DNA from: an uncultured virus (IMG/VR IMGVR_UViG_3300035661_004061) | Taxonomy: Duplodnaviria; Heunggongvirae; Uroviricota; Caudoviricetes | Virus record (IMG/VR): IMGVR_UViG_3300035661_004061 | Strand: one strand, 5' to 3' | DNA length: 64,000 nucleotides | Shown: one piece after another, positions 12,186 to 63,399 of the stretch | Layout of the letters: each line of letters opens with the position of its first letter | Numbering within the stretch: position 1 is the first letter of the stretch | Notes under the pieces: model-generated | Databases searched by the model: none | The model's input: the letters and a program-made list of their open reading frames with translations, nothing else | What the model was told of the DNA's origin: nothing | Program-made: the position numbers and the translations under genes

Positions 12186-12791
12186 TTATAGGAAGTTTAT
12201 AGCTGTTTTTTGAGTTTCTTCCAAACGTCTATCAGTTAAAGGTTCTCCAATAACTTTAAATTTCCAACCGTCAATTTCTTTTACCGCTACACCAAGAATC
12301 ATTGAAACTTTATTTTGAAATAAAGGTTCATTAGCTACTTTAAATGTTGCTAAAATTTCAGTTGGTACATTTTTTGCACCTGTATAAACCCGAAGATTTG
12401 CATAAGGTAATTCACCAAAATTTTGACCACTGAAACTATGAAGAACAACAGCAATATATTTGATTTCACTTGAAATTTTTTCAAGGTCAGCCACAATAAC
12501 CTCATTATCACTATCATCTGCTTGTGTATCACCTGAACGGTCATCACCTGTATGATAAATAGATCCATCTCTTGATTTTGTGTGTCCAAAATATACTTTG
12601 TCCACAAAATTTTTATTACTGTCATATAAAATAACGCTAGCGTCTAGATCTACTGATTCTTTAGAACCACCAAAACCGAACATACCTTTTTTTTGAATTT
12701 GTCCCCAGTTTACACCAAAACAAAGATTTTTCAATCCTTTAGAAGCACTTTTACTTAAATTGATTGTTCCGCCTTTAGATAATTGAATCAT
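12186..12791 (-). CDS. terZ: TerD-family stress protein, TerZ-like
   Basis: LSKGGTINLSK, GVNWG..KKGMFGFGG..VDLDAS, HTGDDRSGD..DNEVI. Confidence 0.8.
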   Translation of the reverse strand: MIQLSKGGTINLSKSASKGLKNLCFGVNWGQIQKKGMFGFGGSKESVDLDASVILYDSNKNFVDKVYFGHTKSRDGSIYHTGDDRSGDTQADDSDNEVIVADLEKISSEIKYIAVVLHSFSGQNFGELPYANLRVYTGAKNVPTEILATFKVANEPLFQNKVSMILGVAVKEIDGWKFKVIGEPLTDRRLEETQKTAINFL

Positions 12792-12846
12792 TTTTTTAAT
12801 CCTTTAATTTTTATTATTTTGATTGATTGTTTGTTTAGAATAAATA

Positions 12847-13443
12847 TTACGCCAAAAGGTGAGCAGCGTTATATTCACGAACAAATTCAGCAAGACCAGA
12901 TTTAAAACCAGCACCTATCGCTTTAAATTTCCATTCTCCATTATTTCTATACAATGAACCAAATTGAAGTGCTGTTTCAGTAGAAAAATCTTCACTAAGG
13001 TCATATTTAGCAATTTCAACACCAGTTTCTTCATTATAAATTTTAATATAAGCATTTGAAACCATACCAAAATTTTGATTTCTTGCTTCTGCACTATCAA
13101 TTGTTACAATAATCGAAATATTTTCAATTCGACTTTCAACATTTGTAAGATCTACTTTAATTGATTCATCATCTCCTTCACCTGAACCTGAACGGTTATC
13201 ACCAAAATGTATAATTGATTCATTACCATTTTTTAAATTACCATAAAAAACGAAATCTTTTTCTGTTTTCAAACTGAAAGATTCTCCATCTTTTTCAAGA
13301 CAAAATAAACTTACGTCTAGGTCAAAAGTACCATTTGAATCAAAACGATTTACATCCCATCCAAGTCCTAGTCTAATTTTAGACATTCCTGGTGCTTCTT
13401 TATTTAAATTGATGTTTCCACCTTTAGATAAGATAATAGCCAT
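12847..13443 (-). CDS. terD: TerD/TerE-family stress protein
   Basis: LSKGGNINLNK, GLGWD, FDLDVS, GDNRSGSGEGDDE, YDLSEDFSTETA, GEWKFKAIG. Confidence 0.9.
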   Translation of the reverse strand: MAIILSKGGNINLNKEAPGMSKIRLGLGWDVNRFDSNGTFDLDVSLFCLEKDGESFSLKTEKDFVFYGNLKNGNESIIHFGDNRSGSGEGDDESIKVDLTNVESRIENISIIVTIDSAEARNQNFGMVSNAYIKIYNEETGVEIAKYDLSEDFSTETALQFGSLYRNNGEWKFKAIGAGFKSGLAEFVREYNAAHLLA

Positions 13444-21210: not shown

Positions 21211-21693
21211 ATGGAAAAGAAAGAAAAATCTTTTGGTGTATGTTTATATAGAAAAAACATTAAAACCAATAAAATAGAAATATTATTAGGAGAACATTTG
21301 TTTACAATGAATAAATGGGGATTAATAAAAGGTAGAGTCGAAAATACAGAAAATAACAAAGAAACGGCGATAAGAGAATTTTTCGAAGAAACTGGAATAA
21401 AATTAAAATTTAAATATTTAGAAAAATTCTTTTTTCAAAAAAATTTTTATAAAAACATAGGAGTCTTCCTTTATAATGCTGAAAATATAAAATATTATAC
21501 TTCGTATTTTAAAAATGATGAATTAAAATACAAAACCAATGAAAATGAAACAATAAAATGGTTTCCACTTGATGAACTTCCATTAATTCATAATAATCAA
21601 AAAGAATTAGTTAAAAATATTAAAGAATATATTGATTCAAATCCTACATTGTTTTTAAAAAATAATACAGAAATAGATTTATATATAAGTTAA
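21211..21693 (+). CDS. Nudix hydrolase
   Basis: Nudix box GRVENTENNKETAIREFFEETGI. Confidence 0.92.
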   Translation: MEKKEKSFGVCLYRKNIKTNKIEILLGEHLFTMNKWGLIKGRVENTENNKETAIREFFEETGIKLKFKYLEKFFFQKNFYKNIGVFLYNAENIKYYTSYFKNDELKYKTNENETIKWFPLDELPLIHNNQKELVKNIKEYIDSNPTLFLKNNTEIDLYIS

Positions 21694-23951: not shown

Positions 23952-25670
23952 ATGATTATAGGAATAACTGGTCATGTAAATATAGAAAAAATTTTTAATT
24001 TAAGTTTTAAAGATTATGGGGAAATTTATAATAATGAATGTTTTGAAAATTTAATAATAGAAATTACTAATACATTAAAAAAAATTTCAAATCATTATAA
24101 TATAGAATTTTCAAAATTAATATTAGTATCTGGAATGGCGAGAGGAATTGATGAAATTTTTGCTGAAATAGCTGTTAGAAATGATTTAAAGTTGATTTTA
24201 TCTATACCTCATTCAATAGAAGCTCATAAAAATAAAAGAATTATAAGAGGAATCAGAGATCAAGCTGTAAATTATGACAAATATTTAAATTATAAAAATA
24301 CAATAAAAATAAATGAAATTAAAAAAAATTATGGTGGTGAAACTTATTTATATGCTAATTTTGCAAGAAATAAAAATATAATAGATGAAAGTGAGATAGT
24401 TATAAGTTTCAAAGCTTATGAAAGTGCTGGAACAAATGATGCTATTGTTGCAGCTAAAAAAACAAACAAATATTTAGGAAATGTTAGTGAAATAAACAAA
24501 GAAGATTTTTCTTTTAATAATTTTAATTATATTTCAAGAGAAATAATAAATCAAAAAAAAATACAGATTGAAGAAGAAAACAAATCAAAAAGAAATTTTG
24601 AATATAATATTAAAAGTATAGATGACAATGTAGACGAATATTCAAAATATTCAAAAATAATGATTATTCAAGGTTGTAATTCTTTAGGAAAAATGGGTGC
24701 TGGAATCGCTGATTATTTAAAAAATAAATTTCCAAAACAAGCTAATGAATATTTTAATTATTACAAAGAAAATGGATTACTTGTGGGTGATGTTGTTTTT
24801 ACAGCTGAAAAATCGAATTTATATTTTGGAAATATAATTTCTCAAGAAAAAATAGGGAAAGATAAACAATATATAGAATATCGAGGTTTTTATGATGGAT
24901 TGATAAAAGTTAAAGAGTTTTGTGAAAATAATAATATAAATATTATAAAAACACCATTAATAGGAACTGGATTAGCAGGTGGCGATTGGGGTGTTATTGA
25001 ATATTTATATAAAGAAGTATTTAAAAATTCTAATATTTTAATTGAATTTTATGAAATAAACGAAAAACATTTAAACTCTTGTTTGCTGAAAATTGAAGAA
25101 AGAAATTTATTAAGAAAATCATTTTCAAAAAAAGACTTTCCAGAAAATTATAATTTTGATAATTTAAAATTTTTAAATAATTCAAATATTAAAATTAAAA
25201 TTGATAATTTTAAAAAAGAAAAACAAAAAGAAAATTTAAATATAATTTCAAATTCAGTTATAGATACAAAATTAAATAAATATAAAATAAAAATAACTAA
25301 TTTAGGGAAAAATGATAAATATATTTATATTGGAAGACCTTCTTTATGGCAAAATCCATTTCCTACAAAATCAAGTAAATTTTCCCCAAATGTATATCCA
25401 CTTGAGGAAAGCTTGAAAAAATACCAAGAAGAAACATTATCTAAGTTAAAAGTTAAAAATTTTGTAAAATTATTATTAGAAAATAATGAAATAACATTAT
25501 CTTGTTTTTGTATAGAAAAAACGATAACAATAAATAATTATAAAATAAATGAAACACCAAAATGTCATGGTGAATTATTAGCTGAAAAAATATTTGAAGC
25601 ATTAAAGTTAGAATTAACGCAAATCAACGAAAATCAATTAAATAATAATGAAAACAATATTAATATTTAA
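23952..25670 (+). CDS. Three-domain fusion: YspA-like SLOG + Macro + DUF4326
   Basis: IGITGH..SGMARGID..ARNKNIID..SAGT (SLOG); QGCNSLGKMGAGIA..PLIGTGLAGGDW (Macro); YIGRPSLWQNPF..LSCFC..CHGELL (DUF4326). Confidence 0.82.
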   Translation: MIIGITGHVNIEKIFNLSFKDYGEIYNNECFENLIIEITNTLKKISNHYNIEFSKLILVSGMARGIDEIFAEIAVRNDLKLILSIPHSIEAHKNKRIIRGIRDQAVNYDKYLNYKNTIKINEIKKNYGGETYLYANFARNKNIIDESEIVISFKAYESAGTNDAIVAAKKTNKYLGNVSEINKEDFSFNNFNYISREIINQKKIQIEEENKSKRNFEYNIKSIDDNVDEYSKYSKIMIIQGCNSLGKMGAGIADYLKNKFPKQANEYFNYYKENGLLVGDVVFTAEKSNLYFGNIISQEKIGKDKQYIEYRGFYDGLIKVKEFCENNNINIIKTPLIGTGLAGGDWGVIEYLYKEVFKNSNILIEFYEINEKHLNSCLLKIEERNLLRKSFSKKDFPENYNFDNLKFLNNSNIKIKIDNFKKEKQKENLNIISNSVIDTKLNKYKIKITNLGKNDKYIYIGRPSLWQNPFPTKSSKFSPNVYPLEESLKKYQEETLSKLKVKNFVKLLLENNEITLSCFCIEKTITINNYKINETPKCHGELLAEKIFEALKLELTQINENQLNNNENNINI

Positions 25671-26678: not shown

Positions 26679-27047
26679 TTAAACTTTTAAATTAAATAAC
26701 AAAGATACATGTTCCTTAAAATATTTTGCATTTTTAACAAAATCTTGACTAGGGTATTGTACAATTAAATTATCTGTTTTTTTATCGGTAACTTTAACCA
26801 TATAAATATCAGTTTCAGTATCTAATTTAAATTGTAAATTATTATTTATAACTGAATCTGTATTATTAATTTTATCTAATAAAGTATTCAATTCGTCCTT
26901 ATTTAAAGTTTTGGGTTGTGAATTATTATCAGAAATATTTTTAGCATAACTACTTATTGATTTTGAAGATTCTCCTATATTATATTCAACAGGAAATTGA
27001 ATATTATTATTTATATTGTTATTAATGATTTTATTTATAGTTTCCAT
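26679..27047 (-). CDS. flaG: Flagellar protein FlaG
   Basis: NLQFKLD..YMVKVTDKKTDNLIVQYPSQDF..LLFNLKV matches the FlaG C-terminus; same operon as fliD. Confidence 0.82.
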   Translation of the reverse strand: METINKIINNNINNNIQFPVEYNIGESSKSISSYAKNISDNNSQPKTLNKDELNTLLDKINNTDSVINNNLQFKLDTETDIYMVKVTDKKTDNLIVQYPSQDFVKNAKYFKEHVSLLFNLKV

Positions 27048-27050
27048 TTT

Positions 27051-27452
27051 TTACTCCTTAATTTTTATCAATAATTCTTTTAGATTATTTAATAAACTTA
27101 ATTCATTTTCTAAAATAAATTTTAATAAAATTTTATTTAAAAAAGTATAAAAATCAATAATATCTTTATGATTAATATCTTCAATATTAACTGAATTTAT
27201 CATAATACTATTAATTTCTAACAATTTACTTATATTTCTATGTTTTAATTCTATTTCATTATTTTGGTGATTTAATATAATTTGATCAATTTTTCTTATA
27301 TATAAAACAAATAAAGTATTCAAAAATTCTTCATTAGATAAAGTATTAACAATACTATTATATGAATTTTTATTTTCTATTACATTATTATAATTATTTA
27401 TAAAATTATGTTCATAATTATTAGTTAATATTTGAAAAATATTTGCTGTCAT
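27051..27452 (-). CDS. fliS: Divergent FliS-like flagellin export chaperone
   Basis: Follows fliD by 2 nt; 133 aa helical; EIELKHRNISKLLEINSIMINSV..IIDFYTFLNKIL pattern. Confidence 0.6.
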   Translation of the reverse strand: MTANIFQILTNNYEHNFINNYNNVIENKNSYNSIVNTLSNEEFLNTLFVLYIRKIDQIILNHQNNEIELKHRNISKLLEINSIMINSVNIEDINHKDIIDFYTFLNKILLKFILENELSLLNNLKELLIKIKE

Positions 27453-27454
27453 TT

Positions 27455-28789
27455 TTATGCCTTTGTACTATAAGATGATTGAATTAAACTATTTAATGCT
27501 GAAAAATTATTATTCATATTTGAAATAATACTATCATAAGCATTGAATTGATTTGTCATAATGTCAAATTTAGTATTTATATAATCTTGGGTACTAATTT
27601 TATTCAATTCCATTCTATTATATTCTGAATTCAAATTATCTGTTTGTAATTTCAAAAATCCACTATTTGAATTTGTAATATTATCCATTGTGGTTTTTAA
27701 TTTTGTAAAAACTCCATTATCTCCTTGAAATAAAATCTTAATATCAGAAAAATTAGAATTATTAAATTTTTTTTCATCTAATGATAAAACTCCACTTTTA
27801 TCTAAACTTAATCCATTTTGAAATAAATTATTATTACTTATAACATTTGTTAAAGAATTATTGATATTTCTTAAAATAGAATTAAAAGTGGAAGAATCGT
27901 TTTGAAAAACACCTGACGAAGTATTTGTTCCACCATTTTGTGTTATATCTTTTGTATAATTTGATAAATTATTATATTGATCAATAAATAATTTATATTG
28001 AGTTTTAATATTATCAGTATTTTGTTCTATTTTCACATCAGTTGTCGAATTTAAATCTTTTAATGTAACTTCTACACCTGTTTTAATATCAGAAAAAGTA
28101 TTACTACTTCTTTCCATATTAATATTATTAAATTTAAATTTAGCATTTTGAGCATGTTGAACATTATTTAAATTTAATTCATTTAAAATATTTGTATCCC
28201 CATTTACTGTTATTGTATTGTCTATTCCTGTATTAGAACTATTTAAAACTAATGAAAATGAACTACCAGACGTATTTAATATATTAGAAGTCATACCTTT
28301 TGAAATTAAAGTATTATTAATTTGATCGTTTAAATCAGATAATTTCATATTATTAGTTATTATAAAATCATAATTATTTCCTTTAAATTGCAAAGTTAAA
28401 TTTTCATTTGAACCAGTTGAATTTATAATTGCATCTTTCGAAGTATATTGTTTGCTTTGATATGTATCATTAGCTGCTAATTGAGAAGTCGATATTGTAA
28501 AATTTTGAATATCCACTCCGTCAGCTGCTTTTACATCTATACTTGAATTAGAAAGAGATACATTTCTTTGAAGATACAACGTTTCATTACTTAAACTATT
28601 TATTGTTGTCGAAAGATCGTTAATCATTCCTGTATATGTAGAAAAAGCTGTTGTTTTTGCTTGATTTTTCGCTATCGACTTATCAATGGGATCTATTTGA
28701 ATAGTTTGTGCATTTGTTTTTAATTGTGTAATAGTATCGCTATTCAATACATTACTTCCCATTCCCATAACACTTAAACTTGAAGACAT
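27455..28789 (-). CDS. fliD: Flagellar filament cap protein FliD
   Basis: SSLSVMGMGSNVLNSDTITQL N-terminus, QLAANDTYQS, AQNAKFKFNN..RSSNTFSDIKTGVEVTL, QFNAYDSIISNMN C-terminal coil. Confidence 0.92.
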   Translation of the reverse strand: MSSSLSVMGMGSNVLNSDTITQLKTNAQTIQIDPIDKSIAKNQAKTTAFSTYTGMINDLSTTINSLSNETLYLQRNVSLSNSSIDVKAADGVDIQNFTISTSQLAANDTYQSKQYTSKDAIINSTGSNENLTLQFKGNNYDFIITNNMKLSDLNDQINNTLISKGMTSNILNTSGSSFSLVLNSSNTGIDNTITVNGDTNILNELNLNNVQHAQNAKFKFNNINMERSSNTFSDIKTGVEVTLKDLNSTTDVKIEQNTDNIKTQYKLFIDQYNNLSNYTKDITQNGGTNTSSGVFQNDSSTFNSILRNINNSLTNVISNNNLFQNGLSLDKSGVLSLDEKKFNNSNFSDIKILFQGDNGVFTKLKTTMDNITNSNSGFLKLQTDNLNSEYNRMELNKISTQDYINTKFDIMTNQFNAYDSIISNMNNNFSALNSLIQSSYSTKA

Positions 28790-36687: not shown

Positions 36688-39354
36688 ATGAATACAAAAA
36701 CCAACAATATTTTAAAAACTTGTATAGAGTCAGATAAAATAATATTCAATCATTTGAGTAAAGAAGAAATTGATTTATTGATTAATGATAAAGACGAAAT
36801 AAAAATAAATAATTTTTCAATAGAGCTTGAAAAAGAAATAGTTTCTAGAAAAAAAGAGATTAAACAATTAGAAGATTCTTTAAAAGCATCAAAAGAATTT
36901 TATTATACAAAAGAAGAAGATTCAGGATTTTTTGCAGATTTAAATAATGATGAAACGTATGATCAATTAGAAGAAAGATTGTTTTTGTTAGATCCAGATA
37001 ATGAAATTTTTAAAATCATAGGAACAACTAATGAAATTGAAAAAACTATTTCAAAAGAAAAAACTTCTTGTTTCCCAGAAAGAGAACATACATTAAAAAT
37101 GGGTTCGCAAAGTAAAGTTCAGGATATGCCAAGTTATAATAAATGGCTTCAATTAAATAATTTAGAAAATGAAGTGTTTTCAATTACAAATAAAGCAGAC
37201 GGAAGTTCAATAGCATTAACATATTCAATTGAAGAAAATTTAGTAAATGAAAATTATGAATTTCTATATAAATATATGAAACAATATTTTACAGAAGCAG
37301 AAAAAATTAAAGTTTTAGAAGAAAATTATATCGATTTAAAACAGAATATAGAAAATGGAAAATTTAATTTACTAGCTGGTGCTTCAAGAAAAGATGGAAT
37401 AGTAGGGGAAGATATAACTTTTAATGCTAAAAATTTTAAAAATGTTTTAAGAAATGTAGATATAAATAAAATGTTTAAAAATAATATAAATGAAACTATA
37501 AATTTAGATAATAATATATTTAAATTAAATGATATTAAACGAATAGAAGTAAGAGGAGAAGTTGTTGTTAAAAAATCTGATTTTAAAATTTTAAATAAAA
37601 CAGGAAAATATAAAAATGAAAGAAATGCAGCAGCAGGAATAATGAGAAGACAAAATTCAGAAAATTCAGATTCATTATCTGTTGTTGTTTATGACCTTAT
37701 TTTAATAGATAAAGATGAAAATGAAATAGAATTTGATGATTCTACAAAATTAAAATTATTAGAAAATGCTGGATTTGAAGTAGTTGATAATTTTATCGTA
37801 AAAGGATTTAAAGAAATCGATAAATTATATTCTGATTACAAATCAAAAATGAGAAACCAAGTAGATTACTTAATAGACGGATTAGTAACAAAAATTAATA
37901 ATTCTGAAAAAAGAAAAGAATTAGGAATAACCAATCAAAGACCTAACGGAGAAAAAGCAATAAAATTTGAACATAAAATAAAAATGAGCACATTTTTACA
38001 TATTCATGAAAGTTTTGGTGTTTCTGGAACAGTAACTCCAGTAGCTGTTATTGAACCAACAGATATAGACGGTGTTTCTGTTGAAAACGCTTCGTTATCA
38101 AATAAAGAAAGAATGGAATTGATGTTATTATCACCAGGTGATAAAGTAATGGTTTCAAGAAGAAACGATGTAATTCCTAAAATTGAAGAAAATTTAAAAT
38201 TACAAAATTATTATAAAGATATTTATACAATAATAAGTAAATATATTTCTAAAATGCCAGAAGAAGCACAAGAAAAATTAAATAATACCATAGAACATGA
38301 TAATCATGAATTTAAATTAGAGTTAAATAGAATAATTTTAGAAATGAAAAAAAATAATAAAGATAAAAAATATATTATTCAAGAATTGGATAAAAGAATT
38401 TTAAATGGTGTAATTAAAGAAGAAGATTCATTATATAAAGAAACATTGAATTTATTGACTTTACCTGAAAGTGAAATTTTATCATATACAGATAATAATG
38501 TTGAATTTCCTGAATTTTGTCCTAAATGTGGTTCTCCATTAATAAAAGAAGATTCTTCTTATAAATGTTTAAATTCTGATTGTCCAGGCGTTAAAGTAGG
38601 AAAACTAATCAGTTTTACAGAACAAGTTGATGGAATGGGTGAAGGGAAAATAACACAATTATTTGAATATGGAATTATATCTGATATAAAAGGTTTAATG
38701 AATTTAAAAGATGAAAATTTTTTAGATGTAAACAACAGTTCTAAAAATAATTATTTATTTGGTTGGAACAAAAAAAGTGTTGAAAAATTTTTAAGTGGTA
38801 TTGATACATTAAGAACATTACCTGATAGTCAATTTTTCGGAAATTTAAAATTCAATAAAATGGGTGAAAGTAGATTTGTTAAATTATTTCAAAATATGGA
38901 TTATCAAGAGTTGTTATCAACTGATAAAGAAGTATTAAAAAATAAAATTATAACATTGGAAGGTTTTGCTGACGGGATAGCAAATAGTCTTGTTGATGAA
39001 TTAGAAACTAGAAAACCTGAAATAACAGAATTATTAAATTATATTAAATTAAATCCTACTCCTAAGTTAGATAAAAACAAACAATTATATACGATTGTTG
39101 TTACTGGTTCATTTAAAGGATATAAAGATGTTTGGAATGATAGAAAATCATTAGAAAAATATTTAAAAGGTGAAGGTCATACTGTTTCTGGTTCTGTAAG
39201 TTCTAAAACAACTTACTTAATTAATAATGATATTAATAGTACAAGTGGAAAAAATGCAGAAGCAAAAAAATTAAATGTAAAAATTATTACTGAAGAAGAA
39301 TTTTCTAAAATATTATTTCCAGAATTAAATCAAGAAATAGGTATTGGAATGTAA
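36688..39354 (+). CDS. ligA: NAD-dependent DNA ligase
   Basis: KADG adenylation motif, GEDIT, EVRGE, RNAAAG, DGLVTK, TPVA, DVIPKI, C4 zinc finger, BRCT (VVTGS..GSVSSKTTYL). Confidence 0.93.
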   Translation: MNTKTNNILKTCIESDKIIFNHLSKEEIDLLINDKDEIKINNFSIELEKEIVSRKKEIKQLEDSLKASKEFYYTKEEDSGFFADLNNDETYDQLEERLFLLDPDNEIFKIIGTTNEIEKTISKEKTSCFPEREHTLKMGSQSKVQDMPSYNKWLQLNNLENEVFSITNKADGSSIALTYSIEENLVNENYEFLYKYMKQYFTEAEKIKVLEENYIDLKQNIENGKFNLLAGASRKDGIVGEDITFNAKNFKNVLRNVDINKMFKNNINETINLDNNIFKLNDIKRIEVRGEVVVKKSDFKILNKTGKYKNERNAAAGIMRRQNSENSDSLSVVVYDLILIDKDENEIEFDDSTKLKLLENAGFEVVDNFIVKGFKEIDKLYSDYKSKMRNQVDYLIDGLVTKINNSEKRKELGITNQRPNGEKAIKFEHKIKMSTFLHIHESFGVSGTVTPVAVIEPTDIDGVSVENASLSNKERMELMLLSPGDKVMVSRRNDVIPKIEENLKLQNYYKDIYTIISKYISKMPEEAQEKLNNTIEHDNHEFKLELNRIILEMKKNNKDKKYIIQELDKRILNGVIKEEDSLYKETLNLLTLPESEILSYTDNNVEFPEFCPKCGSPLIKEDSSYKCLNSDCPGVKVGKLISFTEQVDGMGEGKITQLFEYGIISDIKGLMNLKDENFLDVNNSSKNNYLFGWNKKSVEKFLSGIDTLRTLPDSQFFGNLKFNKMGESRFVKLFQNMDYQELLSTDKEVLKNKIITLEGFADGIANSLVDELETRKPEITELLNYIKLNPTPKLDKNKQLYTIVVTGSFKGYKDVWNDRKSLEKYLKGEGHTVSGSVSSKTTYLINNDINSTSGKNAEAKKLNVKIITEEEFSKILFPELNQEIGIGM

Positions 39355-53214: not shown

Positions 53215-54231
53215 TTATTTTTGTAAATCTTTAACTTTATTGTTATAATCTATACAAACATCCAAACAATTTTTCTTACATATTTCATTACAATGTGTAT
53301 CATTGTTATTTACCCATTCTTCTCTTTCTTTTCTAATTTTTGTAATAGCTTCTTCTGGTGATAAACTATAATCAATTTGTCCAATTTCTTTTCCTTGTTC
53401 TCGCAAGAAAATAATACAAGGGAAATGTTTTCCATTTAATATAGCCATATCATCTAACATTAATGGACATTTATTATTATCTTTTTCTTCCAATCCACGA
53501 ACATGAATACCGTTTTTAAAATGGTTTATTCTATAACTTAAAATAGGGTGTCTATCTAAATATTTTTGTTCAATTTCAATATTTTTGAATTTTTCATTCC
53601 ATTGAGCACTAGATAAAATTCTAATATCTGAAACTTTTAATTCATCCGAAGCAAAAGCTATTAGATCTTTAAATTCCTGAACATTACTCTCTGTAAATAC
53701 TACTCCAACTGTAACATAAGTTAAAGCTGATAAAGTTTTAATGTTTTCTACAACTTTTTCCCAAGAACCTTTAATTCCACCAGCCATTTTATCACCAATT
53801 TCTGCGCAACACGCATCTAATGAAATTGAAAAATCATTAACACCAGCTTCGTATAGTTCTAAATATTTTTTAGTTGGAATTGAACCGTTTGTTGATAATG
53901 CTATTCTTTGAATACCTTTTTCTTTTGTATATTTGATTAAGTCTACTAATGTTTTCCCAGCTTTTCTATCAACCCATAAAGTAGGTTCTCCTCCAGAAAA
54001 ACGAACATTATGCAAATTATTTGCACTCCACATATCAACAACAAATTTTGCTTGTTCCCAAGATATAGAACCACAATTTTCCTTTTCAATACCTCTGCAA
54101 TAAGGACATTTAAAATTACACAAATCTGTTAATATTAATTCACAACGCCAAAGGTCTGTTGTAACAGAAACATTTTTAGCTCTTTCGTCTTCTAATGTAT
54201 AAAATCCTATATTTTCTAATTTATCTATCAT
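53215..54231 (-). CDS. Radical SAM protein
   Basis: CNFKCPYC, FSGGEPT, LSTNG, SISLD; Cys-rich C-terminus (CPL..PCIIFLRE..CNEICKKNCLDVC). Confidence 0.93.
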   Translation of the reverse strand: MIDKLENIGFYTLEDERAKNVSVTTDLWRCELILTDLCNFKCPYCRGIEKENCGSISWEQAKFVVDMWSANNLHNVRFSGGEPTLWVDRKAGKTLVDLIKYTKEKGIQRIALSTNGSIPTKKYLELYEAGVNDFSISLDACCAEIGDKMAGGIKGSWEKVVENIKTLSALTYVTVGVVFTESNVQEFKDLIAFASDELKVSDIRILSSAQWNEKFKNIEIEQKYLDRHPILSYRINHFKNGIHVRGLEEKDNNKCPLMLDDMAILNGKHFPCIIFLREQGKEIGQIDYSLSPEEAITKIRKEREEWVNNNDTHCNEICKKNCLDVCIDYNNKVKDLQK

Positions 54232-54330: not shown

Positions 54331-54963
54331 TTAAAAAATTATAGATTGTTCTTTTTGATTTTCTTCCCATTCTTTTTGATAAGTATTTTTTAATTTATCT
54401 AAAAAAGATAAGGTTTTAATTTTACTCATCCATAAATTATGTCCTGAACTGCCTTTGCAAACAACACCTTCATTTAATTTACCATCAACATTTTGTCGAA
54501 CTTCTTCTATATATTGTTGATTAAATCTTACATTTCCTAAAAATTCAGCTGAAAAATCTAAATCACCAAATAATTTAAGAAAATCTTTTGGGCTAATTAT
54601 CCCCCTTTTAATAATATGAACATCAAATAAAACCAATCGTTTTATATCATCTTTATTGTGAAAACCAGCAAAACTTTTATCTCCAAGATATTCTGTAAAA
54701 ATTACAACTTTATCTTGTCTATAATTATCCACTAAAATTTTAGAAATTTTTTCTTCATAATTATTTTTAAATAATTCTACTGCATCACCAAATTGTTCAT
54801 CCGTATGATCAAACATTCTTTTTCTTGTTCCAAATTTATAAAAACCATTTTTTTTATTCCATTCCCAACGAAGATTAGATCCATCATATTTATAAAATGA
54901 ATATGCATCTTTTCCTAAATTTCTATTTCTATTAATACCGTCTATTGAATTATAAGTTATCAT
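54331..54963 (-). CDS. Rnl2-like RNA/DNA ligase nucleotidyltransferase domain
   Basis: KYDGSN motif I, FTEYLG, LFDV, EGVVCK, KIKT. Confidence 0.7.
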   Translation of the reverse strand: MITYNSIDGINRNRNLGKDAYSFYKYDGSNLRWEWNKKNGFYKFGTRKRMFDHTDEQFGDAVELFKNNYEEKISKILVDNYRQDKVVIFTEYLGDKSFAGFHNKDDIKRLVLFDVHIIKRGIISPKDFLKLFGDLDFSAEFLGNVRFNQQYIEEVRQNVDGKLNEGVVCKGSSGHNLWMSKIKTLSFLDKLKNTYQKEWEENQKEQSIIF

Positions 54964-56249: not shown

Positions 56250-56441
56250 TTTTTTATTTATATATCACTTTTAATATTTAAAAGTTGATATATAAAATCT
56301 CTTATAACTTCCTAAACAACAAAATTTTTAATCAAATCTCCCTTTACTATTTTATAATTCTAAAAAAATGATATTTTTAGATATAATTACTTTATAAAAT
56401 AAAAATTTTATAAAATAAAATTTGAAATAAAAAGGAATATA

Positions 56442-57210
56442 ATGAAAATAAGAAATAATAGAATGTTCACATAAACCTTTTAACAATTTAAAAGAATTAA
56501 ATAATGAAATTTATTCTAAATTTAAAATTGAAAATACAAAAATAAAAATAAATAGTAATGAAAATTTCAAATTATTAAATAATTTCATATTAAATGAAGA
56601 AATAGATGTTTTAAATGATTTTATTAATAATAAAGAAATGATTCCATTAGGTATAGATGGATATAATGAAAATTATAAAGATGGAGATAAAATAGGAAGT
56701 TATAGAATGTCTTTTTATGAAGAACATTTATCTAATTTGTTATTTTTAAGGTTAAAACCATATTTAAATTCTATATATGAATTTAATAACTTAACAACTG
56801 ATAATGGAAATAGTAAATATTGGAAACCTGTAGGTATTAATCCATTATTTAGAGTAATAAGATATTCAAAAGATGGTTTTTTAATACCTCATTATGATTT
56901 TCCATATGCTTTTGATGATAATAAAAGAACATTGATAACAATGGTTATATATTTAAACGATACTGAAAAAAATAAAGGTGGAAAAACAAGATTTTTAAAA
57001 GATCCTCAAGAAAATATTTTAATTCAAAACAGAGATTTGAATGATAAACCAGAATTATTGAATAATACAGAGATATTAGATAGTATATCTCCTACAAAAG
57101 GACAAGTTTTATTATTTCCACATAGATTATTACATGATTCTGAAATATATATTGGTAACAAAAATAAAACAATAATAAGAACAGATATTGTATTTGAAAG
57201 GGTTTTTTAA
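56442..57210 (+). CDS. 2OG-Fe(II) oxygenase (prolyl-hydroxylase-like), apparent 1-nt frameshift just after the start
   Basis: FRVIRY..PHYD..VIYLND..GGKTRF..LFPH..HDS..IIRTD; frame open from 56452; AAGGA plus ATG at 56442 is one base out of frame. Confidence 0.85.
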
Positions 57211-57213
57211 TTA

Positions 57214-57744
57214 ATGAAAAATTTTTCAATAGAATTTGGACATTTTTATGCTGATACAAAACCTCATAAAAAACATAATAAAATATTAAAAGAAATTATT
57301 TCTAATATAGATAATTATGAAATTAATATATTTATAGATAATTATAATGTTGACAAAAACAATCAAATATTTCATTCGATTGAAGATATCAAAAATTTTT
57401 ATTTAATTGAAGGTATTATTGTAAATAATATTCATTTTGAAAATGATATGTCTAAAAATGCTAAAATTATTTTAGAAAATTTAGGTAGATTTAATAATAA
57501 AAAAGATAAAATATATTATAAGGATATTCTTTTATATGATTTTAAGAAAAATAAGTATAGTTGTTCTTTATTAAGTTCAGTTTATTATTTAATAAGACTA
57601 GGAATAATAGAAGATATAAATTATAAAAAATCAAAACAAATTATAAATATATTAGATGAAAAATATAAAAATGTGGAAGAAAAAACCTTATTAATATGTC
57701 AAAACTTTGTAGATTTGAAAAGGATTAAAAATATATATGTTTAA
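57214..57744 (+). CDS. HUP/class-I-synthetase-like protein (SCO2522-like motifs)
   Basis: SIEFGHFY, IFIDNY, YSCSLLSSVYYLIRLG, ILDEKYKNVEEK; family resemblance is from memory. Confidence 0.45.
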   Translation: MKNFSIEFGHFYADTKPHKKHNKILKEIISNIDNYEINIFIDNYNVDKNNQIFHSIEDIKNFYLIEGIIVNNIHFENDMSKNAKIILENLGRFNNKKDKIYYKDILLYDFKKNKYSCSLLSSVYYLIRLGIIEDINYKKSKQIINILDEKYKNVEEKTLLICQNFVDLKRIKNIYV

Positions 57745-59239
57745 ACATTTAAATACAGATATATATTATTCTAAATTATTAGAAACTACAAATGATGAAG
57801 ATATTCTTTTGAAAGCTGGATATATTGATGAAAATTTTATTTTAAATGAAAAAGAAATAAATAAATTATATACACCTATAAATAAATTAAAAAAAATTAA
57901 ATCTTCTTCGCCAATAGTTTTGGTTTCAACAGGTGCGTTTAACCCAATTCATGAAGGTCATATAAAAATGATGGAATTAGCAGAAGAAAAATTAATTCAA
58001 GAAGGGTATGAAGTTATAGGAGGATATTTTTCATTTGCACATGATAGTTATGTTAAAACAAAAGTCTATAAAGATTATGAAATTTTAAAAAGATTTGGTA
58101 AAAGTATAGAAATTATATCAAATTCAAAATATTCTTTTTCTTTATTTTGTGCTGTCTGTATCGATTTTGATATAAATTTTACAAAAGTAATTAATTATTT
58201 TGAAAAATATTTACAAAAATATGTAAATAAAAATATTAAAGTATGTTATGTATACGGAAGTGATAATAAAAATTTTAGACATCTTTTTAATTGTAATGAT
58301 ACTTTATTATTTTGTTGTGTTTCAAGACCAAATTATCAATTAGAAAAAACATTTAAAAATGTTTTAAATGTTTATAAATATAGTTTAGAAAAATCTTCTA
58401 CCGAAATAAGAGAAAATTCAAAATTAAATATAGAAGAATCCAAAAATAATAAAATTCAAAAAATTTATTTAAAAGACGACGGATTTTACAGTTTATTGGA
58501 TTTAAAATTAAAAGATAATAATATATATTATGAAAATTTTAAAAATGATATGTATTTATTATTTAAAAATTATTTTAATGAAGTAGAAATCATTCATCAT
58601 AAATTTCAAAATTTAGAAAGTAACACAATATCATTAGATGAAATCGAAAATCGAAAATATAATTTAGAAATAACAAGGGTATTTGAATTAGATTTACATA
58701 ATAAATCTCCTAAATATATTTCTAATAGAATAAATACTAAAAATCTTACTAAACAAATAAATGAAATTAAAAATAATTATTATAACAATGAATTTTATTT
58801 ATATGATGACGATTCGGCTAGTGGTTTTACAATTTCTTCTATAATTAAAATTTTACAAAAAAATCAAATCAAAATAATTGATTGTAAATTTAATCAAAGT
58901 ATATCATTAAATGAAGATATATGTGATATCAGAGATTTTTTAATAGGTTCAAAGGGTTCTGGATTAACAATTAAACATAAAAATAAAAAATATAAATTAC
59001 CTTATATATTTCCATTTGTAAATTTGAATTATAGAAGTTCTATCGAATATGATAAAATGTTAGAATTTTCTAAAAACATAGTATTATTAAATATAAATTT
59101 TTATCAGAATTTTGATTATAAACTTTATGAAATAAATAAAAATCTATATTACTTTTTTCATAATTTAGGAATTAAAAAAGATATTTCAATGATTGATTTT
59201 CTTTTATATTTAAATACATATTATGAAACAAAAAATTAA
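57737..59239 (+). CDS. NMNAT-like nucleotidyltransferase fused to a PRTase-like domain
   Basis: TGAFNPIHEGH, GGYFSFAHDSYV, YVYGSD, KSSTEIR; C-terminal LYDDDSASGFTI PRPP-binding-like loop. Confidence 0.78.
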   Translation: MFKHLNTDIYYSKLLETTNDEDILLKAGYIDENFILNEKEINKLYTPINKLKKIKSSSPIVLVSTGAFNPIHEGHIKMMELAEEKLIQEGYEVIGGYFSFAHDSYVKTKVYKDYEILKRFGKSIEIISNSKYSFSLFCAVCIDFDINFTKVINYFEKYLQKYVNKNIKVCYVYGSDNKNFRHLFNCNDTLLFCCVSRPNYQLEKTFKNVLNVYKYSLEKSSTEIRENSKLNIEESKNNKIQKIYLKDDGFYSLLDLKLKDNNIYYENFKNDMYLLFKNYFNEVEIIHHKFQNLESNTISLDEIENRKYNLEITRVFELDLHNKSPKYISNRINTKNLTKQINEIKNNYYNNEFYLYDDDSASGFTISSIIKILQKNQIKIIDCKFNQSISLNEDICDIRDFLIGSKGSGLTIKHKNKKYKLPYIFPFVNLNYRSSIEYDKMLEFSKNIVLLNINFYQNFDYKLYEINKNLYYFFHNLGIKKDISMIDFLLYLNTYYETKN

Positions 59240-59302
59240 AAGCTAATATATTGTCTTTTATCGATGTTTAATATTTATAAAAGACAATATATTAGCTTTT
59301 AA
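59236..59302. terminator. 26-bp perfect inverted repeat closing the operon
   Basis: ttaaaagctaatatattgtcttttat - 15-nt loop - ataaaagacaatatattagcttttaa. Confidence 0.7.
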
Positions 59303-59386: not shown

Positions 59387-60064
59387 ATGAAAAATAAAAA
59401 TGTAGTGTTTTTTGATTTTGATAAAACAATAGTAAATATTGATTCATTTTTTGATTTTCTTAAATTTTCTTCAAATAAAGAAATATATTTATTTATATTT
59501 TATAATTTTCCTATATTATTAACTAAATTAATAGGAAAAAATTGGAGATTAAATTTTAAAAATAAACTTTGGGAATATTTTTATGATTTAAATAAAGAAG
59601 AAGTACAAAAATATTGTAATTATTATTTTGAAGAAAATATTGACAAAATATTGCATAAAAATTCAATAGAAACTCTAAAATTATTTAGTGAAAAAGATTT
59701 TGATATTTATATTATTAGTGCAACAGCTAATATATTAATTGAATCTTTTCGAGATATATTAAAAAAGAAATATAACATTAATGTAATAGCTAATGGAAGT
59801 GAATATTATTTTGATAAAAATAATGAAACAAAAATAAATTCTTTAAAAAATTCTGAAAATAAAATAAATATTAAAATTAAAACAAATCATTATGGTAAGA
59901 AAAAAGAAGAAATTATAAATAAAATTATTTTAAACAATGATTATACTTTTAGTTTTGCTTATGGAGATTCCAAAGGTGATAAATATATGTTAAAATGGTG
60001 TGATAAAGGTTATATTGGAAAAGATGTTATGAATAAAGCTATAATTGATATAAAAATTTTTTAA
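59387..60064 (+). CDS. HAD-IB family phosphatase
   Basis: FFDFDKTI, IISA, YGKKK, AYGDSKGDKYML. Confidence 0.9.
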   Translation: MKNKNVVFFDFDKTIVNIDSFFDFLKFSSNKEIYLFIFYNFPILLTKLIGKNWRLNFKNKLWEYFYDLNKEEVQKYCNYYFEENIDKILHKNSIETLKLFSEKDFDIYIISATANILIESFRDILKKKYNINVIANGSEYYFDKNNETKINSLKNSENKINIKIKTNHYGKKKEEIINKIILNNDYTFSFAYGDSKGDKYMLKWCDKGYIGKDVMNKAIIDIKIF

Positions 60065-60307: not shown

Positions 60308-61669
60308 TTAATTTTCTTCATTATTTTTTTTAATATAATATTGATTTCTTCCTTTTCTTTTTGCATAATATAAAGCTTCATCAGATTCTTTTAATAATTC
60401 TTCCTTTGAAATTACTCGATTATCTAAAATACTTATTCCTATACTTATAGTTATGATTTCATTGGTATCTGAAAATTCATGTTTAATTTTTAAATTTTTA
60501 ATCGATTTCAATAATTCTTCCGCAATTATTTTAACACCTTCTTCGTGAATATCTTCTAAAATTATTGAAAATTCTTCTCCTCCATAACGTGCTACAAAAT
60601 CATTAGGACGTTTGATTGTATTTTTTAAAGCTTTTGCAACCCGTATAAGTGTTTTATCACCTTCTGCATGACCATAATTATCATTATATAATTTAAAATG
60701 ATCTACATCTATCATCATGACAGCTAAATTATAAGAATGTCTTAAACTATCTTTATATAATTTTTCTAATTGTAAGTCAAAACAACGTCTATTAGAAATT
60801 TGTGTCAACCCGTCCAATAAAGATATTTTTTCTAATTCTTCACTTTTATCTCTTAATTGGTGTTCAATTTCTTTTTGTTTAGAAATATTAGTAATAACCC
60901 CTATTAATCCAGTTATTTCATTATTTTTATTGATAATAGACGATTTATGAAAAATAACATGATGATTTATTCCTTGAAAATCAGTAATATTTGTTTCATA
61001 AATTTGTTCTATATTGTTTTCTAATAACTCTTTATCACGAAGATAATATTCATTAGCTATTTCTTTTGTATTTAGATCAAAAACATTTTTTCCTATAATT
61101 TTTTTTTCATCTTCTCCAAAAAAATCTTGATAAGCTTTATTAAATCCTGTATAAACACCATTTTTATCCATATAAAATATAGGAACTGGTATAGAATTAA
61201 TTAAATATTTAAAAAATGTATGTTGTTTGTCATATTCATTTTCTAATTTTTCTTTAAGTTCGTTTTTACTTGAAGAAACTAAATCATTTAATTTTAATAA
61301 CATCGACTTTTCAGTTAATACTTTATTTCCAAATAATTTATCATCACTTATGTCTTCAATAATTTCATTAGACAAAACAATAATTACATAATTATCAAAA
61401 TATATTTTTTTGAACTTTCTATTTTTATTATTAATAGTAATAGTAATTTCATTAATATTTTTATCATTAAAAAAATTTTCAAAAATACCATAATTATCAA
61501 TCATTAAAAATTCAATTGTTTTAAATTTAGAAATATCTTCAATATTTAAATCATTATTATTAAAAAATTTTTGATTCATATAAACTATTTCTAAATTATT
61601 ATTTAAAATAATAGCTTCATTTTCAAAAACATTTATTAAATTATATAATTCTTTATTATGATGTTCCAT
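60308..61669 (-). CDS. PAS-domain diguanylate cyclase
   Basis: PAS (PIFYMDKNGVYTGFNKAY), DGLTQISNRR, DVDHFKLYNDNYGH, RPND I-site, RYGGEEF. Confidence 0.95.
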   Translation of the reverse strand: MEHHNKELYNLINVFENEAIILNNNLEIVYMNQKFFNNNDLNIEDISKFKTIEFLMIDNYGIFENFFNDKNINEITITINNKNRKFKKIYFDNYVIIVLSNEIIEDISDDKLFGNKVLTEKSMLLKLNDLVSSSKNELKEKLENEYDKQHTFFKYLINSIPVPIFYMDKNGVYTGFNKAYQDFFGEDEKKIIGKNVFDLNTKEIANEYYLRDKELLENNIEQIYETNITDFQGINHHVIFHKSSIINKNNEITGLIGVITNISKQKEIEHQLRDKSEELEKISLLDGLTQISNRRCFDLQLEKLYKDSLRHSYNLAVMMIDVDHFKLYNDNYGHAEGDKTLIRVAKALKNTIKRPNDFVARYGGEEFSIILEDIHEEGVKIIAEELLKSIKNLKIKHEFSDTNEIITISIGISILDNRVISKEELLKESDEALYYAKRKGRNQYYIKKNNEEN

Positions 61670-61765: not shown

Positions 61766-62671
61766 TTAGAATTTTAAAGAATAATTTTCTTCTATATTTA
61801 TATCTTTTAATAAAATTGTTTTTAAAAATAAATCATAATTAAAATCAACAGATATATATATCCCTGTATTAGTTTTAAATTCAGATCGCCATTTAGGAAT
61901 TTCTTCTTTATTATGACTTAATTCTACTTCTTTAAATTCTATAAGTTTATTTTTATTTTCAATAGCTAAAAAAGCTAATAAATCGTGCATAGGTTTGTTT
62001 CTATATTTTAAATCCATCAAAGAATAATAATTTAATAGTACATTTTCAAATAAACTATTGTTTTTTTTCAAAATTGTTTCTGTAACATTTGATTTATGAC
62101 AAATATTTTTTGAAATAAAATGTAAATTCGATTTGTGATTTTTTAATACATAATTTGTTGAAGATAAATCTAAATTTAAATTCCATGTTGGAACAGATTC
62201 TCTTTTTCTAAATTTTTTTAAGGCTATTTCATTTGGAATAATATTAGAACCAGCATAACCGCCTTGTATAAAAGCTTTTATGTATGGTTCTTTTTCAATC
62301 AATTTGGATAGTGTATATAAACTTCCTCCACAAAATACAATTAAATTTTTATCAATAATATTTTTATTTAAAAAATCATTTAATTTTATATATAAAGTTT
62401 TATCATTTATAATATCATTATATTCATATAATGATTTATGAATATTTTTATCGTTATCATAATTTGTTATATCACCAGATATAATTAATTTAACGTCATT
62501 ATAATTTAATTTTTTTAAAATATTCATTAATACATTAAGTTCTTCGTTAGAAGGATTGTGTATAGATATATATTTTATATTATAGTTATGTTCAATAGCA
62601 TAAATAAGTGTCAATATATCATCTATATCCTCCCTTATTTCAATGTCCATCCATATTTCTTTCTTTTTCAT
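61766..62671 (-). CDS. Nucleoside hydrolase-like protein (phage type)
   Basis: WMDIEIREDIDD, QGGYAG, TWNLNLD, SKNICH, MHDLLA. Confidence 0.7.
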   Translation of the reverse strand: MKKKEIWMDIEIREDIDDILTLIYAIEHNYNIKYISIHNPSNEELNVLMNILKKLNYNDVKLIISGDITNYDNDKNIHKSLYEYNDIINDKTLYIKLNDFLNKNIIDKNLIVFCGGSLYTLSKLIEKEPYIKAFIQGGYAGSNIIPNEIALKKFRKRESVPTWNLNLDLSSTNYVLKNHKSNLHFISKNICHKSNVTETILKKNNSLFENVLLNYYSLMDLKYRNKPMHDLLAFLAIENKNKLIEFKEVELSHNKEEIPKWRSEFKTNTGIYISVDFNYDLFLKTILLKDINIEENYSLKF

Positions 62672-62727: not shown

Positions 62728-63399
62728 TTAATTATACATATTCAAAAGAATATTGTAATCATAAAATCCATATAGACCACATGAAAAAAATTGATGAATT
62801 TCAATTAATTTTATTTCATTGTTCCTTAATATAGCAAAATCCATAGTATATGAATTATATTTATCAAAATTATTAATATATTTTTCAATTATATTAATAT
62901 TCGGAAATATTTTAAAATCACCTGAATAATTTTTAATACCAACTAATTTTTTTCTATATATGAAACAACGATATTCAGAAACAATTTCTAATGGTTCAGA
63001 AATTACATATATTCTTTCATCATCTGGTAAATGTATATATTTATCATAAATATCAGTAATACCTTTAAATATATCTTTTTCTTTAATAAAATCATCTCTT
63101 TTTATATCATTTTTAGTTCCAATTTTCAATTTTCTATCTATTAATTTAGGAAAATCTAAAAGATTAATAGGTTTTATATCAATATTAAAAAAATATTTAT
63201 AAAATTTCAAAACAAATTCTATACTTCCAATTGGTATATATTTTTTATATTTTTGATATTCTATTTTATCAATAGAAACTTTAATATATTTTATAGTGGT
63301 ATTGTTGTTGAGCCAATTATTTACTTTAATAGCTTCTAAAATTTGAAATGAAAAATCATATACTATTTCTTTGTTAATAATTTCTATTAGATATTTCAT
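62728..63399 (-). CDS. ATP-grasp domain protein (DUF4343/phage type)
   Basis: PIGSIEFV, FIK..FKG, SEYRCFI, YTMDFA, LIEIH..SCGLYG. Confidence 0.78.
   Translation of the reverse strand: MKYLIEIINKEIVYDFSFQILEAIKVNNWLNNNTTIKYIKVSIDKIEYQKYKKYIPIGSIEFVLKFYKYFFNIDIKPINLLDFPKLIDRKLKIGTKNDIKRDDFIKEKDIFKGITDIYDKYIHLPDDERIYVISEPLEIVSEYRCFIYRKKLVGIKNYSGDFKIFPNINIIEKYINNFDKYNSYTMDFAILRNNEIKLIEIHQFFSCGLYGFYDYNILLNMYN

Follow-up and report, generated by a model that had tools for sequence, protein, structure and literature searches.

A three-gene operon of an uncultured virus as a probable variant of a widespread NAD-type synthesis module

The DNA analysed here, called the window, is a stretch of 64 kb from the IMG/VR record IMGVR_UViG_3300035661_004061. 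A protein index assigns the third gene described below to a contig of 122,894 bp. The contig belongs to a large phage-like element of the Caudoviricetes. The window carries a compact operon of three genes, coding for a 2-oxoglutarate (2OG)-Fe(II) oxygenase, a small protein resembling the core of aminoacyl-tRNA synthetases (aaRS) and a fusion of a eukaryote-type NMN/NaMN adenylyltransferase (NMNAT) with a domain that resembles phosphoribosyltransferases (PRTases) and their phosphoribosyl pyrophosphate (PRPP) loop. With a probability of roughly 0.55, the operon is a variant of a widespread synthesis module of the nicotinamide adenine dinucleotide (NAD) type, most likely building NAD. The features of the operon, all on the + strand, are as follows.

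56432..56474, + strand: AAGGA sequence resembling a ribosome-binding site (56432-56436) and the ATG at 56442, which opens a ten-codon frame, MKIRNNRMFT-stop
56452..57210, + strand: gene 1, predicted 2OG-Fe(II) oxygenase, prolyl-4-hydroxylase-like (Pfam PF13640 (2OG-FeII_Oxy_3), alignment, family hidden Markov model (HMM))
57214..57744, + strand: gene 2, "mid", modelled as a 176-residue stand-alone HUP domain like the class I aaRS core (AlphaFold2 (AF2) model, superposition)
57737..58444, + strand: gene 3, first part, N-terminal helical lead-in and predicted NMNAT domain (about residues 40-236) with GxFxPxHxGH and SSTxxR (profile, AF2 model, superposition)
58454..59239, + strand: gene 3, second part, type I PRTase-like domain (about residues 240-500) with the PRPP-loop-like FYLYDDDSASGFT and a D-x-x-D-x-R-D-F motif (profiles, model)
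59236..59302, + strand: perfect 26-bp hairpin closing the operon just after the last stop (folding)

The open reading frames occupy 56638..57210 (the frame being open from 56452), 57214..57744 and 57737..59239. Three nucleotides separate genes 1 and 2, and genes 2 and 3 overlap by eight, as had been stated in the initial annotation of the sequence; the operon is real and tightly coupled. The hairpin described there is likewise present, with a perfect stem, a folding energy of -32.7 kcal/mol and a z-score of -12, none of 200 shuffled sequences folding equally well. A scan for consensus terminators lists none, this hairpin included, because the stem is AT-rich. The promoter scan was uninformative in the AT-rich window (58 sites against 55.8 expected).

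The fusion encoded by gene 3 (57737..59239, + strand) is 500 residues long. In a first phmmer pass against the PDB it matched eukaryotic NMNATs only (5e-8). A profile made from 62 sequences of the family matched the A. thaliana NaMNAT at 1.3e-24 over residues 49-236 and human, mouse and fungal NMNATs at about 1e-17 to 1e-18, the best bacterial NadD appearing at 3e-5. The AF2 model of the fusion has a pLDDT of 92.2 and a pTM of 0.90. Its NMNAT domain superimposes (VIA) on the fungal structure 9iw1 with a Z-score of 17.7 and a root-mean-square deviation (rmsd) of 3.0 over 189 aligned residues, and on the mouse structure 5z9r with a Z-score of 17.1, against 13.8 for the best NadD. NMNAT and NadD structures also lead the Foldseek matches (9rpk at 1.4e-7). 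Both profile and superposition therefore favour a eukaryotic NMNAT over NadD, in agreement with the earlier assignment.

The three motifs on which that assignment had been built, GAFNPIHEGH, GGYFSFAHDSY and DDDSASGFT, are all found in the translation. GAFNPIHEGH (residues 66-75) and SSTEIR (residues 220-225) are taken by us to be the (H/T)xGH ATP-binding motif and the SxxxxR (ISSTxxR) motif, respectively. Among the 62 sequences H72, H75 and S221 are invariant and R225 is present in at least 90%. All 17 invariant columns of the alignment are kept in the window fusion, including H72, H75, S221, D359 and T365. The domain is thus predicted to be a eukaryote-type NMN/NaMN adenylyltransferase with intact catalytic motifs.

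The C-terminal 260 residues appear to be only loosely PRTase-like. The fold-search lists for the full-length fusion (Foldseek, VIA) were filled by the NMNAT domain. In the model, the PRPP loop lies between a strand (352-357) and a helix (364-375), which are joined by an acidic pair and an S-G-x-T turn. D359 and T365 are invariant in the 62 sequences, and D358 and G363 occur in at least 90% of them. The second motif, DxxDxRDF, is conserved as strongly as the loop and has no nameable counterpart. The PRPP-loop domain proposed at the outset is supported as a PRTase-like domain by PF00156, which matches 16 of the 62 family members (best 2.4e-4), and by matches of HPRT and APRT to the loop. Structural look-alikes of the domain in the Atlas are clusters with PRTase names, the one rich in PF00156 having TM values of 0.64/0.74; these are leads only.

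Gene 1 was called a 2OG-Fe(II) oxygenase from the start, and PF13640 matches it with 40.4 bits against a cut-off of 27 (E 5.9e-10). An HMM of the oxygenase clade that belongs to the module matches at 1.2e-95. In a profile search of the PDB the nearest solved structures were prolyl-4-hydroxylases, which are distant (E 0.0025). Numbered from 56452, His147, Asp149, His224, His228 and Arg243 are invariant in 14 aligned oxygenases. They lie in the motifs PHYD (H147, D149), HRLLH (H224, H228) and IRTD (R243), and the HxD...H...R residues are thereby kept. Judged by its sequence, gene 1 codes for a 2OG-Fe(II) oxygenase that looks intact and whose clade is elsewhere found linked or fused to the NMNAT-PRTase protein.

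The beginning of this gene is unusual. The initial annotation had placed the start of the operon at the ATG at 56442, which proved to be mis-framed: it has AAGGA five nucleotides upstream, yet is out of frame with the oxygenase and runs into a stop after ten codons. From 56452 the oxygenase frame runs open over 252 codons. Downstream of the stop at 56449-56451 its first canonical start is the ATG at 56638, with no other ATG, GTG or TTG ahead of it. The 62 codons from 56452 to 56637 stay open in DNA of 19% GC and align with the conserved N-terminal helix region of stand-alone homologues, which are 248-287 residues long. The Met at 56638 is situated inside a conserved block, which reads ...NNKEMIPLGIDGY in the window and ...NNHGWLPVGIDGI in the homologues. 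In a contig from another run a G>A change at 56640 turns the ATG at 56638 into ATA and leaves the frame unbroken. The internal ATG is thus not a conserved start, and the variant suggests that the part upstream of it is translated. With an open and conserved stretch of 62 codons but no start, translation would need either a +1 shift or initiation at the non-canonical ATA at 56455 or 56458; otherwise the sequence carries an indel. Among near-identical contigs from four other runs, no long piece bridges 56389-56525.

These features might be taken as signs of decay, the oxygenase having a frameshifted start and the module in the window having degenerated until nothing but mid and the fusion was functional. 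The ATG linked to the ribosome-binding site is out of frame, the next canonical start falls inside the conserved block and NadE, the NAD synthase of most related loci, is missing from the window, all of which would fit. However, the frame is open over 252 codons where about one codon in ten is expected to be a stop by composition, the catalytic residues are all kept, and the ATA variant leaves the frame intact. An assembly indel or a non-canonical start explains the beginning of the gene equally well. Decay is thus very unlikely in our estimate.

The AF2 model of mid, for which an alignment of 14 sequences served as input, has a pLDDT of 90.5. It superimposes on the core of yeast ArgRS with a VIA Z-score of 17.2 and an rmsd of 2.6, with 169 of its 176 residues aligned. 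Forty-seven chains match at Z>=8, nearly all of them class I aaRSs; after ArgRS follow GluRS, MetRS, CysRS, GluQRS and MshC. Foldseek gives 3fnr at 7.5e-7. The HUP fold previously suggested for the middle gene is in accord with these superpositions, and according to the model gene 2 is a minimal class I aaRS-like HUP domain. The core fills all 176 residues, and mid is without anticodon-binding, tRNA-binding or insertion domains.

The invariant residues of mid are E7, H10, Y12, A13, D14, D42, E76, C117, R128, G130, E155 and K157. EFGHFY, which had been read as a HIGH-like motif, is part of the strand-1 family motif [IV]E[FVC][AG]H[IVF]YAD and does not occupy the HIGH position in the model. The sequence HKKH before helix 1 occurs only in the window copy among the 14 sequences. 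A resemblance to SCO2522-family proteins, noted in the initial annotation, is found in so far as NF040566 matches five of nine mid family members faintly (best E 4.5e-4); the match to the window protein, 19.7 bits over 30 residues (E 4.5e-4), is far under the cut-off of 200 bits. Mid has no Pfam match, and its profile gave only chance-level matches in the PDB. A word-index search of a collection of 5.8 billion proteins found mid itself alone, and the Atlas feature search gave no usable match, the Atlas's own model of mid being poor. A complex prediction for mid and the fusion scored 0.00, which is no verdict for or against binding. In two archaeal-looking contigs a gene for a saccharopine-dehydrogenase-like protein lies directly upstream of a mid homologue (L109:16-1185 and L111:4372-5574), with no NMNAT fusion nearby.

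The fusion family is large, with 196 clusters at E<=1e-30 and 1149 when the threshold is relaxed to E<=1e-3. Pattern scans gave 23 viral and 59 genome loci, and the 70 loci with a fusion match at E<1e-10 were analysed; they are not independent, many being close relatives. Neighbours within 5 kb were clustered, examples were annotated with Pfam, and the presence of each family per locus was tabulated by HMMs. A tblastn search of the fusion against 50,697 phage records gave no match. A NadE gene or domain (PF02540) is present in 63 of the 70 loci. It lies directly upstream as a separate protein of about 320-340 residues in 45 loci and is fused to the oxygenase in a protein of about 590 residues in 11. 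The oxygenase is found in 23 loci and a radical S-adenosylmethionine (radical-SAM) enzyme, from one of three families, in 38; no locus has both and nine have neither. The oxygen-free radical-SAM form occurs in metagenome-assembled genomes (MAGs) of gut Clostridia, Bacilli and Elusimicrobia and in some bacteria of the candidate phyla radiation (CPR). We infer that the two forms represent the familiar aerobic/anaerobic swap of one chemical step. NrtR-type NAD regulators occur in nine of the 70 loci.

That the genes might not be conserved together had been a concern. The oxygenase shares a locus with the fusion in the 23 loci mentioned, and six open frames match both. In Legionella shakespearei, L. 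santicrucis and L. longbeachae these frames (about 1,115 residues) match NadE also, and all four activities are combined in one protein. This joining in six polypeptides, and the shared locus in a third of cases (23/70), speak against the possibility that the three genes of the operon are mere neighbours. In that case the fusion would be a plain NMNAT with a regulatory or nucleotide-binding PRTase-like domain (cf. PyrR, ComF), the oxygenase would act on protein or nucleic acid, and mid would be an unrelated small HUP protein. In 62 sequences of about 30% identity the residues of the PRPP loop and of DxxDxRDF do not vary, which points to a working site, and the overlap and the 3-nt spacing are typical of co-translated partners. 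A chance neighbourhood would nevertheless be in line with the lack of a significant PF00156 match in the window fusion, with the protein-modifying prolyl hydroxylases being the nearest solved relatives of the oxygenase, with the mid homologues found without a fusion and with the listing of similar oxygenases in PHROGs as common phage auxiliary genes. On balance, it is hardly likely.

The window represents a form of the module without NadE. NadE, the usual partner of the fusion, had not been considered in the initial annotation. All frames of the 64-kb window were searched for NAD synthase (PF02540) without a match at E<=1e-5, and the Pfam scans contained none. HMMs of the partner families found the oxygenase and mid alone in the window, and none of the radical-SAM, ATP-grasp and c4 families of the module. 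Mid is present in eight of the 70 loci, that is, in six of the seven that lack NadE as against two of the 63 that have it; the seventh NadE-less locus, without mid, has only a fragment-like fusion match. Mid adjoins the module in three different orders. In the window it is situated between the oxygenase and the fusion, with the 8-nt overlap. In L003 and L098 it lies directly behind the fusion and overlaps it, and in L066 and L088 directly ahead of the NadE-oxygenase gene, the order in L088 being ATP-grasp, c4, mid, NadE/oxygenase, fusion. Because of these three arrangements and of its presence mainly in NadE-less loci, mid may be an accessory of the module from the adenylate-forming superfamily, possibly one that replaces NadE. 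In a quick tree the window fusion is found on a long, unplaced branch. No annotation was obtained for c12, c14 and c21 of the six viral contigs.

A bolder version of this idea, which we regard as quite unlikely, is that mid is a new carboxylate-activating enzyme which replaces NadE and, together with the oxygenase, builds NAD or an analogue resistant to host NADases from a precursor foreign to all known NAD pathways. If true, this would be a fourth, chemically distinct route by which phages rebuild NAD or counter host defence.

In the synthesis of NAD that we consider most likely for the operon, the PRTase-like domain would join a pyridine base, nicotinamide or nicotinate, to PRPP. The NMNAT domain would adenylate the mononucleotide to NAD+ or to nicotinate adenine dinucleotide (NaAD), and in most relatives a NadE-type synthetase would then make the amide. 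One further oxidative step would be carried out by the oxygenase in aerobes, or by the radical-SAM enzyme in anaerobes and some CPR bacteria. The hydroxylation of a base and the role in counter-defence supposed in the initial annotation are conjectural. In the NadE-less window the base may be nicotinamide, or the NadE of the host may be used, or the aaRS-like mid may take over or assist the activation of the carboxylate. The phage would gain a supply of NAD, the same element encoding an NAD-dependent DNA ligase, a Macro/NADAR protein and a Nudix protein.

Five genomes holding the module were searched for NAD genes. In a Curtissbacteria MAG of 1.1 Mb the fusion is the sole NadD-type match and the NadE of the module the sole full NAD-synthase match. 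No nicotinate phosphoribosyltransferase (NAPRTase) was found in this MAG. Of its other two genes with the cytidylyltransferase fold, one codes for PPAT/dephospho-CoA kinase and one for an RfaE-like enzyme. A Collierbacteria genome likewise has the fusion as its sole clear NMNAT, besides a weak NadM-like protein of 182 residues, a NAPRTase and a second NAD synthase. From these gene contents the module would plausibly be a housekeeping NAD route in one reduced genome, within the limits set by the incompleteness of a MAG, and accessory elsewhere.

A serious rival, although we hold it to be unlikely, is that the module makes not NAD itself but a modified dinucleotide resembling NAD, or some other metabolite or signal derived from nucleotides. 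The PRTase-like domain would then take an unusual base, and the oxygenase or radical-SAM enzyme would tailor the product together with ligase-type and other accessories (mid, ATP-grasp, c4, GNAT, a pyridoxal phosphate (PLP) enzyme). The near-obligatory oxidative partner, never doubled in the 70 loci, would be accounted for in this way. So would the extended clusters that are conserved in some lineages. In the loci of Clostridia and Bacilli MAGs (L024-L046, L060-L062) the cluster around the fusion consists of a PLP-decarboxylase-like protein, a radical-SAM enzyme, NadE, the fusion, a GNAT protein, a second radical-SAM enzyme, a 617-residue protein and the methyltransferase-like c4, for which there are only weak SAM-methyltransferase hints (E 0.09). 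The fusion sometimes carries a C-terminal GNAT domain there, and the components of the cluster occur in 18-32 of the 70 loci, or in 19-32 if c4 is left aside. The Legionella cluster has the composition given above for L088. These extra genes are, however, lineage-specific and not in the window. The C-terminal domain is close to no characterised PRTase family, and the module accompanies canonical NAD genes in three of the five genomes, which would also suit a tailored product. On the other side, three of the four core activities are homologous to consecutive steps of the NAD pathway, NrtR regulators are near in nine loci, and one CPR genome has the module as its sole candidate NMNAT and NadE.

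Several observations weigh against an NAD-building module as we have described it. The window fusion has no PF00156 match at E<=0.1, and the family profile reaches HPRT and APRT, although exactly on the PRPP loop, only at E 0.025-0.06, so that the PRTase call is weak. The start of the oxygenase is broken or unusual in the window. In mid, neither HxxH (HIGH) nor KMSKS is conserved in the 14 aligned sequences. The window covers 64 kb of the 122,894 bp of the contig, and NadE may lie beyond it. The six NadE-less viral loci form one clade in the quick tree, and there are few independent events linking mid to the absence of NadE. Moreover, mid homologues occur in 22 metagenome loci, 14 of them without a fusion gene, and at least four of these 14 have full or nearly full flanks with archaeal-looking neighbours, namely a saccharopine-dehydrogenase-like protein, RtcB/archease, HIT proteins, an amidase and an asparaginase-N-domain protein. 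The mid family is thus broader than the module. Canonical NadD, NadE and NAPRTase accompany the module in Legionella, Obscuribacter and a Clostridia MAG, where it is thus accessory. Finally, the strict pairing with either an oxygenase or a radical-SAM enzyme fits no known NAD route and leaves room for another product.

The GC content across the window is 16-27%. The gene content is that of a large phage-like element: homing endonucleases, dNMP kinase, ThyX, ribonucleotide reductase, a phage-type NAD-dependent DNA ligase, DnaB, ClpP, ClpX, two TerD genes, a Macro+DUF4326 protein and a Nudix protein. Near-identical DNA is found in contigs of other runs labelled microbial mat, sediment and hydrothermal vent; none of the eight runs listed is recorded as RNA. 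Genes that handle NAD and ADP-ribose are a theme of the contig. These, and the gene behind the hairpin, are as follows.

21211-21693: Nudix hydrolase
23952-25670: Macro + DUF4326 (NADAR-like) protein
36688-39354: NAD-dependent DNA ligase (LigA), 888 residues, with an N-terminal extension (Pfam)
59387..60064, + strand: HAD-IB phosphatase, behind the hairpin (Pfam HAD 5.5e-15; NCBIfam)

The HAD phosphatase had been noted as the gene next to the operon. It is adjacent, as described, but lies beyond the hairpin and is not conserved with the module: no homologue was found among 82 related loci at E<=1e-3. It is therefore not counted as a member of the module. As a separate lead, the Atlas contains a cluster of 611-residue CPR proteins that pairs a domain like the C-terminal part of the fusion with a HAD (Hydrolase_3) phosphatase, and PRTase-like and HAD activities might be coupled elsewhere.

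The two TerD-domain genes adjoin each other at 12186-13443 (E 1.4e-28 and 5.6e-72). The flagellar genes FlaG, FliS and FliD at 26679-28789 are odd within an otherwise phage-like genome. A radical-SAM protein at 53215-54231 is most similar, among NCBIfam models, to MoaA and more weakly to viperin-family models; HMMs of the radical-SAM families of the module did not match it. The 210-residue protein at 54331-54963 contains a K-Y-D-G stretch that, read by eye, resembles motif I of ligases or nucleotidyltransferases; nothing in Pfam, NCBIfam or PHROG matches this protein, and the PDB contains no meaningful match. A PAS-GGDEF diguanylate cyclase is encoded at 60308-61669. An R2K-clade ATP-grasp protein (PF18299, 1.8e-18; 62728-63399) adjoins a protein of 301 residues (61766-62671) that has no family and no meaningful PDB match, and neither of the two matches the HMMs of the ATP-grasp or c4 families associated with the module.

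Much of the conflict between bacteria and phages turns on the depletion of NAD, and since 2024 three routes have been described by which phages rebuild it. The module considered here is much more widespread than any single phage lineage, being found in CPR bacteria, gut Clostridia, Legionella and giant phage contigs, and at least one reduced genome may have no other route to NAD. It contains two enzymes without assigned chemistry, the fused PRTase-like domain and the oxidative partner, whether oxygen-dependent or radical-SAM. New in the window are the NadE-less form and the minimal tRNA-synthetase-like partner, which together offer a simple three-gene construct for testing the product. Related ideas are said to go back to 2012, when de Souza and Aravind reportedly predicted pathways for nicotinate-derived metabolites, and Anantharaman et al. 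reportedly predicted nucleoside-like metabolites made by PRTase, ATP-grasp and HAD proteins beside Ter genes. Literature searches covering titles and the beginnings of abstracts found no description of an oxygenase-NMNAT/PRTase module or of SCO2522.

The proteins of the operon can be compared with better known relatives. Mid has the Rossmann-like core in common with class I aaRSs and their stand-alone relatives (ArgRS, GluRS, YadB/GluQRS 4a91, MshC 3c8z, pantothenate synthetase), on which 155-175 of its 176 residues superimpose with Z-scores of 11.6-17.2. Unlike the aaRSs, it lacks tRNA-binding and insertion domains, and neither HIGH nor KMSKS is conserved in its family; it is less than a third of the size of ArgRS, and its conserved residues (ExxHxYAD, D42, E76, R128, ExK) are its own. 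The fusion shares its fold (Z 17-18) and the GxFxPxHxxH and SSTxxR-type motifs with its best sequence matches, eukaryotic NMNAT1-3 and plant NaMNAT (1kqn, 1nup, 5z9r, 9iw1, 9rpk). The identity with eukaryotic NMNATs is 21-23%, and the fusion has an additional N-terminal helical segment and the 260-residue PRTase-like domain at its C-terminus.

The Preiss-Handler pathway (PncB, NadD, NadE) has the same order of phosphoribosylation, adenylylation and amidation, and the NMNAT domain and the NadE of the relatives are homologous to its enzymes. The module differs in that a type I PRTase-like domain, fused to the adenylyltransferase, would attach the base in place of the type II PncB, the adenylyltransferase itself belongs with the eukaryotic NMNATs, and an oxygenase or radical-SAM enzyme is an integral partner; the window, in addition, is without NadE and has the aaRS-like protein. 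In gut jumbo phages nadD, NAMPT and pncB-nadD-nadE clusters have been reported (PMC11662467), and the accessible part of that report mentions neither an oxygenase nor a PRTase fusion. According to the accessible part of PMC13464706, NARP1 recycles ADP-ribose (Adps and Namat), NARP2 converts nicotinamide to nicotinamide mononucleotide (NMN) and then to NAD (NAMPT and NMNAT), and NARP3 consists of PnuC and a NadR-like enzyme. These pathways are likewise phage-borne and the module would, like them, end in NAD+; NARP2 also couples a phosphoribosyltransferase to an NMNAT. As far as that part of the report describes NARP1, NARP2 and NARP3, the gene set of the window is unlike all three, as the initial annotation had supposed: it lacks homologues of NAMPT, Adps, Namat, PnuC and NadR, its PRTase is type I-like and fused, and it adds an oxygenase and an aaRS-like protein.

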